Shown here piece by piece: positions 1 to 5,427 of a stretch of DNA of 5,427 nucleotides. Below the pieces are notes generated by a model. The model searched no databases. It worked only from the letters and a program-made list of their open reading frames with translations, and had not been told where the DNA came from. Within the stretch, counting starts at the first letter, position 1, and the number at the start of each line of letters is the position of its first letter. The stretch comes from a virus (Duplodnaviria; Heunggongvirae; Uroviricota; Caudoviricetes), in IMG/VR virus record IMGVR_UViG_2534681662_000019. One strand, 5' to 3'. Position numbers and translations under genes: made by a program.

Positions 1-330
1 CCGGACTGTACCAGCGAAAACGGCACCCTGTCCGAACGCCGGCGGGCTGCCGCGAATAAAATGCGTATGACCGGCAATCTGAGTCGGCGCTTTTATGAAT
101 GGCTGGCTGCGCAGTACGGTTTTACCGTCAGGCTGACGGATTCCACAGAAGGCCAGTGGGTTACGCAGGTCAATATTTACGGTATTAAAAATTATCGCAA
201 CGCAACGGTGCTGGATAATGTTCTGACGCCGTTACGTGTTTATGAATCGGGTGCGCTGGAATGTTTACTGGAGAAATATAAACCCGCGCATCAGATTTAT
301 AAATTTGTTTACCATGACGGAGATAACTAA
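1..330 (+). CDS. 3'-terminal part of a phage tail/baseplate protein gene (Mu gene-48-like); 5' end lies upstream of the window
   Basis: Frame 1 is open from base 1 with no stop before the ATG at 61 listed in the ORF track, so the gene probably starts upstream. Its TAA stop (328-330) overlaps the S start codon as TAATG, a coupling typical of phage late operons. Product assignment is by position only. Confidence 0.55.
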   Translation, partial: PDCTSENGTLSERRRAAANKMRMTGNLSRRFYEWLAAQYGFTVRLTDSTEGQWVTQVNIYGIKNYRNATVLDNVLTPLRVYESGALECLLEKYKPAHQIYKFVYHDGDN

Positions 331-1865
331 TGTTTTATATTGATAACGACAGCGGCGTAACCGTCATGCCGCCCGTATCCGCCCAGCGTAGTGCTATCGT
401 TCGCTGGTTTTCAGAAGGTGACGGGAATAATGCTATCACATGGCCCGGCATGGACTGGTTTAATATTGTGCAGGCGGAGTTATTAAACACGCTGAAAGAA
501 GCCGGTATTCAACCGGATAAAACAAAATTAAACCAGCTTGCACTGTCCATTAAAGCCATTATGAGCAATAACGCGCTGCTGATAAAAAATAACCTCAGCG
601 AAATTAAAACTGCCGGGGCATCAGCACAGCGTACAGCACGTGAAAATCTGGATATCTGGGATGCCAGCCTGAACAAAAAAGGCCTCGTTCAGCTAACCAG
701 TGCCACTGACAGCCCCAGTGAAACGCTGGCAGCCACCGCAAAAGCGGTGAAAATTGCGATGGATAATGCCAATGCCCGTCTGGCAAAAGAGCGGAACGGA
801 GCAGATATTCCCAATAAACCGCTGTTTATCCAAAACCTCGGTTTGCAGGAAACAGTAAACAAGGCTGGTAACGCCGTTCAGCGTTCCGGCGATAAAATGA
901 CCGGAGAACTGAAAATTGGCACGGTGAATGCGCTGCGAATTTTCAATGATGCCTTCGGTCTTATTTTCCGTCGTTCAGAAGAGTACCTTCATTTCATCCC
1001 TACGGCTGAAGGACAAGGCGAAAACGGTGATATCGGCCCATTAAGGCCATTCGCTATAAATCTGAGAACAGGTGCTATATCTGTCAGCCACGGGGCCAAA
1101 ATTGATGGTGGGCTGGCGCTTGGTACAGATAACGCACTGGGCGGTAATTCCATTACTCTCGGAGATAACGACACTGGTATTAAACAGGGCGGCGACGGTG
1201 TCCTTTTATTCTATTCAAATGGACAACTGGCATTTGGGCTTCAACCCGCATCTGCTGATTTTTATAAGCGGGTTGCATATATTCATCAGGGAATAATTCC
1301 TGATGGAAGTGGCGCATTTGCAGACCAGTTGAATAATGCCACCGCGCCTTTTGTTCAGACGCAGTTTGCCTGGAATCCCACTCCTGGTGGTCATTACGTG
1401 CCGATAGTTAAGGGCTTGTCCATTCGCAATGGACAGGGCTATCCCGGCGCGGTCAGCTTTGGGTATTTACTGACAGAACAGTATGGATTTCCGGTTCCAT
1501 GTATTCATATGCGTGGCGATGGCGGTAATGATGCTTTATGGCAGTTTAACCCGAACGATAAATCCTTTATTTCACCGGGTGCTCTTATTGCGGGTGGCGT
1601 CCATTATAACACCGATGGAAATATATTTGGTGGGTGCTGGGGTTCAAACTTAAATGATTACCTGAATAGTTCTTTTATCAGAAATGTGCGTCTGGGAGGC
1701 AGACGTTCTGACGTATTATATCGCGGAGGACTTTGCGAACCAGGTAATGGTCATGTGACAACAGGATTGCAAATTATTGGTGAGGTTGATGGAGATGACT
1801 GGATGGTGTCACGACCACTACAAAAATACATTTCTGGTAACTGGTATAACGTTGAACAGGCATAG
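330..1865 (+). CDS. S: Tail fibre protein S: constant N-terminal part (Sc, about 330-838) fused in frame to the variable part Sv inside the invertible segment
   Basis: 511-aa ORF with ATG overlapping the upstream stop. It reads through gixL (826-851) as ...FIQNLGLQETVNKAGNAV... It shares a Gly-rich block (ALGGNSITLGDNDTGIKQGGDGVL) and a C-terminal block (GLQIIGEVDGDD...WYNVEQA) with the minus-strand S'v cassette. Followed 15 nt later by a tail-fibre assembly gene. Confidence 0.9.
   Translation: MFYIDNDSGVTVMPPVSAQRSAIVRWFSEGDGNNAITWPGMDWFNIVQAELLNTLKEAGIQPDKTKLNQLALSIKAIMSNNALLIKNNLSEIKTAGASAQRTARENLDIWDASLNKKGLVQLTSATDSPSETLAATAKAVKIAMDNANARLAKERNGADIPNKPLFIQNLGLQETVNKAGNAVQRSGDKMTGELKIGTVNALRIFNDAFGLIFRRSEEYLHFIPTAEGQGENGDIGPLRPFAINLRTGAISVSHGAKIDGGLALGTDNALGGNSITLGDNDTGIKQGGDGVLLFYSNGQLAFGLQPASADFYKRVAYIHQGIIPDGSGAFADQLNNATAPFVQTQFAWNPTPGGHYVPIVKGLSIRNGQGYPGAVSFGYLLTEQYGFPVPCIHMRGDGGNDALWQFNPNDKSFISPGALIAGGVHYNTDGNIFGGCWGSNLNDYLNSSFIRNVRLGGRRSDVLYRGGLCEPGNGHVTTGLQIIGEVDGDDWMVSRPLQKYISGNWYNVEQA
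826..851. other. gixL: gixL recombination site for Gin invertase (TTATCCAAAACC-TC-GGTTTGCAGGAA)
   Basis: 26-bp site with two 12-bp half-sites around a central TC dinucleotide (838-839). It matches the gix/hix half-site pattern as I recall it and is present in inverted orientation at 3837-3862. It lies inside the S coding sequence, as expected for the Sc/Sv junction. Confidence 0.85.
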
Positions 1866-1880
1866 CCATCAGGAGAATAT

Positions 1881-2408
1881 ATGCAACATCTGAAAAATAT
1901 TACCGCCGGAAACCCCAAAACCATTGAGCAGTATCAGCTTACGAAAAAAGCTGGCGTTATCTGGCTATATACAGAAGACGGTAAAAACTGGTATGACGAA
2001 TTAAAAAACTTTCAGGATGATACTTTAAAAATAGCTTATGACCAGAAGGGGATTATTCGTTGTATTGAGAAAGACGTATCAATGCTTAACCCTGACGGGT
2101 TAAGTGTTGTTGAGTTACCGAATATAACAGCCAACCGTCGCGCCGATATCTCGGGAAACTGGAAGTTTCTGGATGGTAAAGTAGTAAAGCGGGAATATAC
2201 AAAACAGGAACTGCAACAGCAGGCAGAGTTACAAAAAGCCGCTTTGCTTTCCGAAGCGGAGTCTGTGATTCAACCGCTGGAACGTGCTGTCAGACTGAAT
2301 ATGGCAACTGATGAGGAACGCACACGACTGGAATCATGGGAACGCTACAGCGTTATGGTCAGCCGTGTGGATACTGCAAAGCCTGAATGGCCACAGAAAC
2401 CAGAATAA
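1881..2408 (+). CDS. U: Tail fibre assembly protein U (chaperone for S)
   Basis: 175-aa ORF with AGGAG (1871-1875) 5 nt upstream of the ATG. Clear paralogue of the minus-strand 177-aa ORF (both start MQHLKNI..GNPKT.EQYQLTK...[12 protein letters not shown] and share ITANRRAD). Position directly after the fibre gene. Confidence 0.9.
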
Positions 2409-2417
2409 CAACAAATT

Positions 2418-2440
2418 AAGGCCCGTACGGGCCTTTTCTT
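2418..2440. terminator. Bidirectional rho-independent terminator between the convergent U and U' genes
   Basis: Hairpin aaGGCCC-gtac-GGGCCtt (2418-2435) followed by TTTTCTT on the + strand and preceded by an A/T-rich run (TTAATTTGTTGTT on the - strand). It sits in the 30-bp gap between the U stop (2406-2408) and the U' stop (2439-2441). Confidence 0.6.
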
Positions 2441-2972
2441 ATTCTGGTGGTTCCGGGAATGTTACAGGAAGAACCGAGGTATCAGTTGTCTCAACCTGTT
2501 GCACGTATCGCATCCAGTTCATCAGTTGCTGTCTGTCTGAATCAGTGATAATCCCCAAAGTAAGCTGTGTTTGCCAGAACTGCGTTTTTTCTCTGGCCTG
2601 CTGTAATAATATTTTTTTCTGGTTTTCCGTCTGTAGGCGCAACTCTTCTTCGGTATATACACGTTTAATGACTGCGCCATCTTTAAACATCCATTTACCT
2701 GAGTCGTCAGCACGCCGGTTGGCGGTAATATCAGGAATCTCAACGACGCTATAACCTTCAGGGTTAAGTGTGGAGGCATCTTTGGTTATGGCAACAATAA
2801 TATTATTTTCGTCGTAAACAATCTTTATGGTGTCTTCCTGAAAGTTATTTACTTCCTCATACCAGTTTTTACCGTCTTCTGTATATAACCAGATAACATC
2901 AAAATTCTTTGTTAGCTGATATTGCTCTTTTGTTTTTGGATTTCCTGACTTAATATTTTTTAAATGCTGCAT
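2439..2972 (-). CDS. U': Tail fibre assembly protein U' (chaperone for the alternative fibre S')
   Basis: 177-aa ORF on the minus strand, paralogous to U. Its ATG (2970-2972) lies 1 nt after the S'v stop codon (TAA, complement of 2976-2978), with AGGTG just upstream on the minus strand. Confidence 0.9.
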
Positions 2973-2975
2973 AAT

Positions 2976-3848
2976 TTACACCTGTGCGACGTTATACCAT
3001 GTGCCATTGATGTATTTTTGTATTGGTCTGAAGATGGCTTCATCATCGCCATCTACTTCACCAATGATTCTTAATCCGGTAATTGCGTGTCCGGCTTTTT
3101 CATAACGACCACCACGCGCCATCAATTGAACAACACGCGTACCCAGGCGAACATCTTTCACATAGCGGGAATCAAAATTCCCCCAGTTGCTGGGTTGTAT
3201 CTGACCGTTAACAGCAAATATTACTGAGTTATCTGTATTTCGCTGACTATAGAAATGCCAGCCAGAATCATCGCCAAGCTCTGCAACAGTTGGCCTTGAC
3301 GAAGCGCCCCATAAATTAAACCCTACGTTCTTCGTGGAGTTGTTGGAGCTGGATAGCGTGAATTTTTTACCATCCCCGGCCTGAATATTTTTAAAAGCAA
3401 TAGCCACTCCATTCTGAAAGCGGAATACACGCTGACTATTAGCATAAACATCCAGAATACCGTCTCCATTCTGTTTAAATCCGGTGTCATTATCACCAAG
3501 AACAATAGAGCTACCACCTAACGCATTCGTCGTACCAACTCCAAGACTGCCATTAATGACGGCATTTACCAGAATATTTAGTGCATCCCATTTCAGCGTC
3601 ATCAGGTCTTTTGTTGTGGTGCTCTGGCGGCTTCTCCATTTGAAATATTCATTGCCGTTGTCGCCTGTTTCAAACCACATGTATGAATCAGTGTCACCAT
3701 CGGCATCATTTTTAAATCCAATCTTCGCCCAGTCAGTATTTCGAATCCAGGCAAGGATTGAGTCATTTTCAAAAGTAAGCCCACCGGACAAGGTATCGCC
3801 ATTTTTTTGCACGGCGTTACCAGCCTTGTTTACCGTTTCCTGCAAACC
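2976..3848 (-). CDS. S': S'v: promoterless, startless variable C-terminal cassette of the alternative tail fibre, expressed only after G inversion as an Sc-S'v fusion
   Basis: Minus-strand open frame homologous to Sv at both ends (QETVNKAGNAVQ... and ...GLRIIGEVDGDD...WYNVAQV). It has no ATG or RBS of its own; the ORF track's M at 3845 is a TTG that is the Leu codon of the shared ...NLGLQETV... junction. The frame is closed one codon outside the crossover by a TAA (complement of 3855-3857) within gixR. Confidence 0.85.
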   Translation of the reverse strand, partial: GLQETVNKAGNAVQKNGDTLSGGLTFENDSILAWIRNTDWAKIGFKNDADGDTDSYMWFETGDNGNEYFKWRSRQSTTTKDLMTLKWDALNILVNAVINGSLGVGTTNALGGSSIVLGDNDTGFKQNGDGILDVYANSQRVFRFQNGVAIAFKNIQAGDGKKFTLSSSNNSTKNVGFNLWGASSRPTVAELGDDSGWHFYSQRNTDNSVIFAVNGQIQPSNWGNFDSRYVKDVRLGTRVVQLMARGGRYEKAGHAITGLRIIGEVDGDDEAIFRPIQKYINGTWYNVAQV

Positions 3849-3870
3849 GAGGTTTTAGATAATGGCTGTT
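3835..3870 (+). promoter_or_regulatory. Candidate gin promoter overlapping gixR (-10-like GATAAT at 3858-3863)
   Basis: GATAAT hexamer inside the outer gixR half-site, about 55 nt upstream of the gin start; the -35 is weak. In the Gin/Hin/Cin family the invertase promoter is reported to overlap the adjacent recombination site. The exact hexamers here are my inference. Confidence 0.3.
3837..3862. other. gixR: gixR recombination site (TTCCTGCAAACC-GA-GGTTTTAGATAA), inverted relative to gixL
   Basis: Its reverse complement is TTATCTAAAACC-TC-GGTTTGCAGGAA, identical to gixL except for one base (C in gixL, T in gixR). Central dinucleotide at 3849-3850. Located between the S'v cassette and gin. 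Confidence 0.85.
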
Positions 3871-3916: not shown

Positions 3917-4510
3917 GTGCTGATTGGCTATGTAAGGGTATCAACAAATGACCAGAATACAGACCTGCAACGAAACGCTCTTGTTTGTGCAGGATGTGAA
4001 CAAATATTTGAAGATAAATTAAGCGGAACAAGGACAGACAGACCTGGATTAAAGCGCGCTTTAAAGCGTCTTCAAAAAGGTGACACACTGGTTGTCTGGA
4101 AACTGGATCGCCTCGGGCGAAGCATGAAACATCTGATTTCTCTCGTCGGAGAACTACGGGAGCGAGGGATTAATTTTCGCAGCCTTACTGACAGTATTGA
4201 TACGTCATCCCCAATGGGGCGTTTTTTCTTCCACGTTATGGGTGCCCTAGCTGAAATGGAACGAGAACTAATCATCGAGCGAACGATGGCAGGACTTGCT
4301 GCCGCCAGAAATAAAGGCCGTATTGGTGGGCGACCACCTAAACTAACCAAAGCGGAATGGGAGCAGGCCGGGCGTTTATTAGCACAAGGAATCCCCCGCA
4401 AGCAGGTTGCATTGATCTACGATGTGGCCCTGTCAACTCTGTATAAAAAACACCCCGCGAAACGAACGCACATAGAAAACGACGATCGAATCAATCAAAT
4501 CGATCGGTAA
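3917..4510 (+). CDS. gin: Site-specific DNA invertase Gin (serine recombinase, resolvase/invertase family)
   Basis: ORF starting at GTG 3917 with GGGAG (3905-3909) upstream. N-terminus MLIGYVRVSTNDQ has the catalytic Ser at position 9. The catalytic domain and C-terminal helix-turn-helix (GGRPPKLTKAEWEQA...) are characteristic of Gin/Pin/Hin/Cin. Located directly beside gixR. Confidence 0.95.
   Translation: MLIGYVRVSTNDQNTDLQRNALVCAGCEQIFEDKLSGTRTDRPGLKRALKRLQKGDTLVVWKLDRLGRSMKHLISLVGELRERGINFRSLTDSIDTSSPMGRFFFHVMGALAEMERELIIERTMAGLAAARNKGRIGGRPPKLTKAEWEQAGRLLAQGIPRKQVALIYDVALSTLYKKHPAKRTHIENDDRINQIDR
3960..4075. promoter_or_regulatory. Candidate Fis-dependent recombinational enhancer (sis) within the 5' part of gin
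   Basis: In Mu the enhancer lies inside the start of the gin coding sequence. Here there are Fis-like 15-mers of the G-N13-C type with A/T-rich cores, for example GAAGATAAATTAAGC (4010-4024) and GCGCTTTAAAGCGTC (4056-4070), plus a weaker one at 3962-3976 whose centre is 48 bp from the first. The Fis motif is degenerate, so this placement is tentative. Confidence 0.25.
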
Positions 4511-4518
4511 TACAGATC
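4484..4518. promoter_or_regulatory. Cluster of three GATC (Dam) sites upstream of the mom promoter: the methylation-sensitive OxyR (MomR) operator
   Basis: GATC at 4484-4487, 4502-4505 and 4515-4518, each within a GATCGA/CGATCG context, just upstream of the -35 region. In Mu, OxyR binds this region when it is unmethylated and represses mom. The sites lie inside the last codons of gin. Confidence 0.65.
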
Positions 4519-4520
4519 GA

Positions 4521-4572
4521 TTATGTCTCAATAACCACACTCAACCCATGATGTTTTTTAAGATAGTGGCGA
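4521..4572 (+). promoter_or_regulatory. mom operon promoter (Pmom): C-activator dyad, weak -35, 19-bp spacer with T6 run, -10 TAAGAT
   Basis: TTAT-N6-ATAA dyad (4521-4534); -35-like ACCACA (4534-4539); 19-bp spacer; TTTTTT (4554-4559) abutting the -10 TAAGAT (4559-4564). This is about 30 nt upstream of the com RBS and matches what I recall of the activator-dependent Mu mom promoter. Confidence 0.55.
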
Positions 4573-4592
4573 ATTGATGCAAAGGAGGTGAG

Positions 4593-4781
4593 ATGAAATC
4601 AATTCGCTGTAAAAACTGCAACAAACTGTTATTTAAGGCGGATTCCTTTGATCACATTGAAATCAGGTGTCCGCGTTGCAAACGTCACATCATAATGCTG
4701 AATGCCTGCGAGCATCCCACGGAGAAACATTGTGGGAAAAGAGAAAAAATCACGCATTCTGACGAAACCGTGCGTTATTGA
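4593..4781 (+). CDS. com: Com, zinc-finger translational activator of mom
   Basis: 62-aa ORF with strong RBS AGGAGG (4583-4588). Cys-X2-Cys...Cys-X2-Cys motif (C6, C9, C26, C29). Its 3' end overlaps the mom start by about 50 nt, as in the Mu com-mom operon. Confidence 0.9.
4715..4737 (+). promoter_or_regulatory. mRNA hairpin (translation-inhibition structure) sequestering the mom start codon
   Basis: UCCCAC (4715-4720) pairs with GUGGGA (4732-4737). The 11-nt loop GGAGAAACAUU contains the mom Shine-Dalgarno GGAG, and the GUG start (4732-4734) is inside the 3' arm of the stem. Consistent with Com-dependent translational activation. Confidence 0.55.
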
Positions 4782-5427
4782 GTATGAAGGCCAGATTGTT
4801 GGCTATGGTTCAAAGGAGCTGCGCGTTGAAACCATATCCTGCTGGCTGGCCCGCACAATTATTCAGGCAAAGCACTATTCCCGCCGTTTTGTGAATAACT
4901 CTTACCTCCACCTGGGAGTATTCAGCGGACGCGATCTGGTTGGCGTTCTCCAGTGGGGATATGCCCTTAACCCCAACTCAGGTCGTCGTGTCGTGCTTGA
5001 AACGGATAACCGGGGCTATATGGAGTTGAACCGCATGTGGCTACACGACGACATGCCCCGCAACTCTGAATCACGGGCCATCAGTTATGCACTGAAAACC
5101 ATAAGGTTACTGTATCCGTCAGTGGAGTGGGTTCAGTCTTTTGCAGACGAACGCTGCGGACGTGCTGGCGTTGTGTATCAGGCGTCAAATTTTGATTTTA
5201 TTGGCAGCCATGAAAGCACGTTCTACGAGCTGGATGGTGAGTGGTATCACGAGATAACGATGAACGCGATTAAACGCGGTGGACAACGAGGCGTGTATTT
5301 ACGGGCTAATAAAGAGCGTGCCGTGGTGCACAAATTTAATCAGTATCGCTACATCAGGTTCCTGAACAAGCGAGCAAGGAAGCGACTAAATACCAAGCTA
5401 TTCAAGGTTCAGCCATACCCTAAGTGA
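4732..5427 (+). CDS. mom: Mom, DNA adenine-modification protein (anti-restriction)
   Basis: Long ORF ending at the window edge. GTG 4732 has GGAG 7 nt upstream and gives 231 aa, the length I recall for Mu Mom. The in-frame ATG at 4702 (241 aa) used by the ORF track has no RBS. Overlaps com in a different frame. Confidence 0.85.

Follow-up and report, generated by a model that had tools for sequence, protein, structure and literature searches.

How is translation of a gene switched on when its start codon lies inside the preceding gene, in another reading frame, and is folded into a hairpin? This arrangement occurs where com runs into mom in the 5,427-nt stretch of viral DNA analyzed here (hereafter the window). 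We conclude, with a probability of roughly 0.93, that this is the com-mom operon of a Mu/D108-type phage, and that the mom start is locked in an inhibitory hairpin, the translation inhibition structure (TIS), which is opened by the Com protein. The mechanism was assigned because of the nucleotide identity to Mu and D108, the curated ribosome-binding site (RBS) and GTG start, the published Com target and TIS, and the Pfam matches. Judged by its sequence, the feature carries every element of the Mu com-mom module and is an already known system.

The window is the right end of a Mu/D108-type transposable phage, comprising the G segment, gin, com and mom (Table 1), as indicated by the ORF map, the Pfam assignments and the Megablast identities. 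Over positions 4440-5427, Megablast returned 99% identity to D108, 97% to Mu, and 97-98% to several Yersinia and Shigella Mu-like phages, and the order gin-com-mom is that of the Mu right end. Every base from 4529 to 4800 was the same in an alignment of the window with Mu (AF083977) and D108, such that com, the Com target, the TIS, the mom Shine-Dalgarno sequence (SD) and the GTG of the Mu operon recur base for base. Window and Mu do not differ at 4593-4781; outside this interval the window is closer to D108 (99%), and its Gin has 197 aa, like that of D108, instead of the 193 aa of Mu Gin. The same module is found at 97-99% identity in D108, SfMu and the Yersinia vB_YpM Mu-like phages. Because the final seven bases of the window match Mu and SfMu, not D108, the window looks like a mosaic of Mu-like phages. 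Further to the left, a 55-nt inverted repeat (826-880 / 3808-3862, 95% complementary) flanks the ~3-kb invertible G segment, inside which lie the two alternative tail-fibre gene sets on opposite strands, and a 348-nt inverted repeat (1880-2227 / 2626-2973, 71% complementary) joins the U and U' genes.

Table 1. Features of the window and the basis on which each was placed.
Feature	Position	Strand	Basis or remark
Tail-fibre genes	330-2408	+	ORF map
Second tail-fibre set, inverted	2439-3845	-	ORF map
Serine invertase gene gin	3917-4510		ORF map; Pfam Resolvase/HTH_7
Three GATC (Dam) sites	4484, 4502, 4515 (span 4484-4518)	.	Upstream of com-mom promoter; overlap gin 3' end/stop
com-mom late promoter region	4518-4584	+	Transferred from AF083977 'late promoter', locus 379-445
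com Shine-Dalgarno, AAGGAGGTGA	4582-4591	+	Read from sequence
com coding sequence, 62 aa	4593-4781	+	ORF; identical to Mu Com; PF10122
Published 19-nt Com target, GAAUGCCUGCGAGCAUCCC	4700-4718	+	Exact match to the sequence in PMC6483171
Com-target hairpin: stem AUGC 4702-4705 / GCAU 4712-4715, loop CUGCGA 4706-4711	4702-4715	+	Folds, covariation
Upstream in-frame ATG, alternative mom start	4702-4704	+	RefSeq/D108 annotations; 5' arm of Com-target hairpin
TIS hairpin: UCCCAC(GG) 4715-4722 / (UU)GUGGGA 4730-4737	4715-4737	+	RNAfold
mom Shine-Dalgarno, GGAG	4721-4724	+	Annotated RBS in AF083977; 7 nt before GTG
mom coding sequence from GTG, 231 aa, DNA adenine-modification enzyme	4732-5427	+	ORF, Pfam, Mu record
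com/mom overlap, 50 nt, two reading frames	4732-4781	+	ORFs

The first gene of the pair, com, begins with an ATG at 4593 and ends with a TGA at 4779-4781. Its product matched Pfam PF10122 (Zn_ribbon_Com, 'Mu-like prophage protein Com') with E = 2.7e-9, above the curated cut-off, and its cysteines 6, 9, 26 and 29, arranged as CKNC...CPRC and encoded at 4608-4679, make up a CCCC zinc ribbon. The codons of its C-terminal tail double as the operator and the beginning of mom. The published description of Com is that of a 62-aa protein with a CCCC zinc finger and a C-terminal tail that is disordered (PMC6483171), and the curated Mu record AF083977 labels com 'translational activator'; a search for solved structures of Com returned no real homologue (best E = 0.15). 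The com SD, AAGGAGGTGA, is a 10-nt complement of the anti-SD, with the ATG following 1 nt after the whole 10-mer and 4 nt after the GGAGG core. Its predicted unpaired probability was 0.92, and the Mu record annotates the com RBS at a position equal to window 4583-4587. A prior sequence-only reading of the window had described Com as a 62-aa Cys4 zinc finger translated from a strong RBS, with mom starting in another frame about 50 nt before the com stop; the four cysteines and the PF10122 match, the unpaired 10-nt complement, and a GTG at 4732-4734 that gives an overlap of exactly 50 nt bear out these three points. Upstream of com, the late promoter region differs from that of Mu at two bases only, near 4526-4528. 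GATC is rare in the window (8 occurrences vs 18.3 expected), and three of the eight fall within 35 nt at 4484-4518, a cluster that fits the region through which Dam and OxyR are reported to control the mom promoter of Mu (Hattman, 1999).

The second gene encodes a protein that matched Pfam PF25680 'Mom' (E = 2.5e-75) and PDB 8bv8 'Methylcarbamoylase mom' (E = 1.6e-157), and that differs from Mu Mom at 2 of 231 residues. Its reading frame is open from an ATG at 4702 (241 codons) and reaches the last base of the window, 5427, and public records disagree on where translation begins. RefSeq NC_000929 (Mu) and the D108 record GQ357916 annotate mom from this ATG as a 241-aa protein, whereas AF083977 (protein version.2) places the mom RBS at window 4721-4724 and the CDS start at the GTG at window 4732. 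Should mom be translated from ATG 4702, the hairpin at 4715-4737 would be part of the coding sequence, with no control over initiation. We consider this very improbable, even though the ATG is the first start codon in the open frame, and even though a 2026 structural study takes it as residue 1 of Mom and refers to the 241-aa protein as 'full-length' (PMC13219725). A search of the 18 nt upstream of ATG 4702 found no SD, and the AUG itself is predicted to be paired within the Com-target hairpin. We also compared 125 related loci, all of them collected through Mom. The position of ATG 4702 is occupied by GTG in several of them; in-frame TAA codons separate it from the GTG in two (L047 and L061); and at loci with 70-84% Mom identity the sole plausible start (GTG, ATG or TTG) is at the GUG-equivalent position. 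Gene calls of most Mom homologues likewise begin at the GUG-equivalent residue. At the protein level, the delta-10 (GTG-form) Mom is active and is also the form that was crystallized (PMC13219725), and PDB 8bv8 accordingly spans residues 11-241 in ATG numbering. Lastly, active Mom has been purified with a reported mass of 27050 Da (PMC7261163), which fits the computed mass of the 231-aa protein without Met (27042 Da) and not that of the 241-aa form (28146 Da).

Given an SD that is present upstream of one candidate and absent upstream of the other, the in-frame stops, the conservation of the start, and the gene calls in relatives, a mom start at GUG 4732 and not at AUG 4702 is strongly supported by the sequence comparison. 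The window thus favors the GTG annotation, which would mean that in RefSeq Mu, D108 and several Mu-like records mom has been begun 10 codons too early or com and mom have been left as 'hypothetical'. In the records of D108, SfMu and the vB_YpM phages, mom either begins at the upstream ATG or is labelled 'hypothetical protein', unlike the GTG call made here, and in several Yersinia Mu-like phages both com and mom carry the latter label.

With the start placed at 4732, the mom GUG falls in the stem of the TIS, in which UCCCAC pairs with GUGGGA over 6 bp. RNAfold added two G.U pairs (4721-4731 and 4722-4730), which put the first two G of the GGAG SD at the top of the stem and its AG in the loop. 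The isolated 29-nt hairpin had a dG of -9.5 kcal/mol (z = -3.07; 1 of 200 shuffles was as stable). Across contexts of 46-441 nt, the five core pairs had probabilities of 0.99-1.0, the GUG had an unpaired probability of 0.0, and the SD was half unpaired. In a 71-nt fold the hairpin was part of both the minimum free energy (MFE) and the centroid structure, with an overall z of only -1.3. Hairpins as stable as the TIS occupied 2.5% of the 29-nt segments of the sequence, in 26 clusters. The TIS hairpin is therefore real and robustly predicted, while the window alone is insufficient to exclude chance; its significance comes from the identity with Mu and from the evidence in relatives, not from window statistics. 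The published 'translation inhibition structure' of Mu, which has the mom GUG in its stem (PMC6483171), is present exactly in the window. A search of the whole window against Rfam 15 at E<=1 gave no match at 4690-4760, and returned just two weak, unrelated matches at 417-524 and 2191-2380.

Immediately 5' of the TIS lies the site of Com itself. The native Com target, 5'-GAAUGCCUGCGAGCAUCCC (PMC6483171), folds as a small hairpin that was part of the MFE of both the 46-nt and the 71-nt folds and that adjoins the TIS, U4715 being common to both. A covariance model built from 38 relatives found one significant match in the window, at 4699-4718 (24.8 bits). The sequence-only reading had proposed a 6-bp hairpin at 4715-4737 with the GUG in the stem and the SD in the loop, to be checked by folding 4690-4760, and a Com site 5' of this hairpin. 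The hairpin over the GUG emerged in the MFE and centroid as proposed, with core pairs of at least 0.99 and the modest overall z given above. The SD claim held for the AG of GGAG, while its first two G cap the stem. The Com site is where it was expected and matches the published target, yet it is a second hairpin and not unstructured RNA. As a whole, that interpretation is supported, being the published mechanism with refinements on the Com site and the SD.

According to the mechanism that we favor, a single late transcript would carry both com and mom, with com translated freely from its exposed, near-perfect SD. Initiation of mom at GUG 4732 would be blocked, as the GUG and part of its SD would be paired in the TIS. 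Com would bind the small hairpin at 4702-4715 (loop C-UGC-GA) with a footprint, 4700-4718, that enters the 5' arm of the TIS; binding would destabilize the TIS, and the 30S subunit could then use GGAG and GUG to produce the 231-aa Mom late in infection. The pair would be the textbook operon under Com activation, by which a toxic DNA modification that counters restriction is timed to late infection. For Com binding and translational activation we rely on published work with the identical Mu sequence: direct Com-RNA binding has been published for a sequence identical to the target in the window, and binding has been proposed to destabilize the TIS and expose the start signals (PMC6483171). We infer the physical route by which binding would melt the TIS; melting was not seen by SHAPE with a truncated Com (PMC6483171). 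Folding thermodynamics alone appear insufficient for opening of the Mu TIS, because enforcing the Com hairpin in Mu-type sequences (ddG 0) left the TIS intact and the start still paired. Predicted accessibility of the mom RBS was lower than that of the com RBS across 49 loci (medians 0.35 vs 0.43, p about 0.02-0.05), a weak difference among loci that are non-independent and, in the distant ones, of uncertain start choice.

Among 14 distinct Mu-type sequences (Mom 81-99% identical), conservation over 360 nt peaked at 4711-4722 (0.99) and exceeded that of the zinc-finger codons (0.83-0.89), whereas Com-hairpin loop bases 4707-4709 and the TIS loop varied freely. The TIS stem is invariant in this set, and hence without covariation. 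Two relatives alter its surroundings or its pairs: through a 6-nt insertion, the stem of L047 reaches 10 bp and its loop contains AGGAGAG, and a C4720U change in L003 retains the pair as U.G; C4718, a wobble base of com, is invariant among Mu-type relatives. Every base of the TIS stem lies within com codons or within com and mom codons, and the overlapping frames could contribute to its conservation. Directly after the GUG, the A-rich tract AAAAGAGAAAAAATCACGC (4737-4758), which is coding in both frames, is also among the most conserved segments of Mu-type relatives (0.92-0.95).

In the wider set of relatives, 43 of 49 non-redundant com-linked loci had the motif CC-N2-3-GAGC no more than 70 nt before mom, compared with 4.5 expected from dinucleotide shuffles, and its GAG was located 20-30 nt before the mom start. 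The motif falls in com phase 0, 1 or 2 depending on the lineage, and so reflects a constraint on the RNA and not a conserved peptide. It was found in ~51 of 58 com-linked and in none of nine com-less loci (Fisher p = 2.7e-7, for phylogenetically non-independent loci). Com presence was scored by a CxxC...CxxC ORF screen corrected by eye and by a relaxed regular expression that gave some false negatives; all eight motif-bearing loci first scored as com-less do encode Com, in the form of CxC variants, one pseudogene, and copies truncated at contig ends.

The motif always sits within a hairpin whose stem is 4 bp long. The loop is closed by C-G in 32 of 32 cases and the next pair is G-C in 37 of 38, while the third (CG 18, GC 8, UA 8, AU 1, GU 1) and the fourth (AU 20, GU 8, GC 7) vary; a fifth pair is never possible, the opposed bases being A.C or C.C. 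In 38 distinct relatives, 96.6% of stem cells were paired, compared with 80.1% in shuffles (none of 500 as high) and 10-51% in slid controls. Searching 80 genome loci (447 kb, both strands) with the covariance model gave 38 matches at E<=1, all on the + strand and directly upstream of mom, some of them in loci outside the model set. In vitro selection had yielded a rule for Com of CC(N)2-3GAG in the loop, a variable 3-4-bp stem and a closing C-G pair, and the Com of H. sputorum binds the Mu 19-mer (PMC6483171). The covariation that we observed agrees with this SELEX rule, which natural sequences thus support by a Com-target hairpin with a closing C-G, a C-N2-3-GA loop and a covarying 4-bp stem at a fixed distance from mom. 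What is added here is that, by sequence comparison, the Com-target hairpin recurs 20-30 nt upstream of mom in com-linked loci across Proteobacteria.

Some loci depart from this pattern. In L066, L064, L062 and L119, the first knuckle of Com is CxC (RCACG, RCGCG, RCRCG) in place of CxxC, and a canonical Com-target hairpin still follows. Six com-linked mom loci (L049, L077, L051, L054, L091 and L096) are without an exact CC-N2-3-GAGC, and their operators may be divergent. Two of the six, L049 and L077, have CC-N5-GAG instead, with the SD sequestered in a GUCUCCGA...UCGGAGAC stem.

The covarying hairpin also bears on whether Com protein is needed at all. Under translational coupling in cis, ribosomes translating com would unwind the TIS and Com would be dispensable for mom. 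The geometry is suitable, as mom starts 50 nt inside com and every com-translating ribosome must consequently melt the TIS, and such coupling is favored by the conserved overlap, which measures 34-74 nt in 48 of the 49 com-linked relatives. Com, however, reportedly acts in trans, as Wulczyn et al. are said to have found in 1989, which counts against a purely cis effect. Pure coupling would also leave unexplained a covarying protein-binding hairpin that keeps a constant spacing to the mom start and occurs in com-linked loci only, and direct binding of Com to the exact sequence is on record (PMC6483171). We regard coupling as the main means of opening the TIS as very improbable; it may contribute alongside Com.

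Beyond the Mu type, the predicted structures take another shape. Loci of alpha- and delta-proteobacteria (Mom identity 48-59%) are predicted to fold into one long helix. In it the Com-motif region is base-paired to the start codon, be it AUG, GUG or UUG, and to the bases on either side (for example, L073, L075, L099 and L120), and the SD lies in an inner stem or loop. Since the MAFFT alignment A3 shifts register here (N2 vs N3 spacers, variable loops), column-wise covariation was replaced by a test of cognate vs swapped duplexes. Duplexes between the 5' arm and the RBS averaged -16.2 kcal/mol when cognate and -12.6 kcal/mol when swapped (permutation P<1e-4), and -19.0 vs -14.9 kcal/mol in the distant group alone. 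Enforcing the Com hairpin in distant loci came at a median cost of 10 kcal/mol and lowered start-codon pairing from 0.67 to 0.35. Because the enforced hairpin costs ~10 kcal/mol in the distant loci and nothing in the Mu type, the folding models suggest one switch with two architectures. The two hairpins of the Mu type, that of Com and the inhibitory one, would be adjacent and able to coexist. By contrast, in the distant type the Com hairpin would be contained within the 5' arm of a helix of 9-13 bp in which the mom start codon is paired; each fold would exclude the other, and Com would capture the alternative one.

The same comparison makes it scarcely credible that the TIS is a chance hairpin or a by-product of overlapping coding frames with no regulatory role: its stem is invariant in close relatives, all its bases are coding, and hairpins of similar strength are not rare in the window, but pairing of the mom start or of the SD region recurs in distant lineages of unrelated sequence, arms form more stable duplexes with their own partners than with swapped ones (P<1e-4), the stem is lengthened in L047, keeps a U.G pair in L003 and retains C4718 throughout, and experiments on the identical sequence have been published (PMC6483171).

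Many distant loci, among them L099, L073, L076, L094, L095, L101, L111 and L116, have a second CC-N2-3-GAGC hairpin (e.g. GGGCCACGAGCCCC) ~22 nt upstream of the proximal one, at about -48 to -57 from the mom start. Two of these upstream copies were matched weakly by the covariance model (L064 1051-1069 and L076 1081-1099), and the succession of upstream and proximal hairpins recalls the bipartite SELEX motif.

We consider it an even bet that the Com operator is a widespread, covarying and uncatalogued RNA switch with two architectures, side by side in the Mu type and embedded and mutually exclusive in the distant type. Rfam has no family covering the Com operator, and the searchable literature yielded no comparative study of it beyond possible Com sites in FluMu (PMC3299994); the comparison of Com-target hairpins could seed an RNA family model. 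A family-wide covarying operator and a second architecture would amount to a modest extension, not to a new kind of system.

Small phage proteins that act on the start of a neighboring gene are familiar from RNA phages. The coat proteins of MS2 and Q-beta bind a short hairpin, the replicase operator, that contains or abuts the start of the next gene, as Com does. The sign of the effect is opposite: coat protein stabilizes its hairpin and represses, whereas Com binding leads to opening and activation. The Com-target hairpin has also been noted to resemble HIV TAR in sequence and structure (PMC6483171), although the two systems are evolutionarily unrelated and Tat-TAR works at the level of transcription elongation instead of translation initiation. 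Closer to the present case, a Com zinc finger is encoded upstream of a DNA-modification gene in FluMu, Pnm1 and H. influenzae biotype aegyptius, as in the window, and possible Com binding sites have been reported at the 5' end of hin1523 (PMC3299994). In these three, unlike here, the downstream gene encodes a DNA adenine methyltransferase and not Mom.

Lastly, mom loci that are com-less exist as well (L048, L056, L059, L060 and L069). L048, from an Enterobacteriaceae MAG, has a 13-bp hairpin, cuguuuucucaa...UUGagaaaacag, around a TTG start (1170-1210). The other four (Serratia- and Sphingomonas-labelled) share a different conserved hairpin before a TTG start, at ~1140-1180. These hairpins may be independent ways to restrain mom translation.
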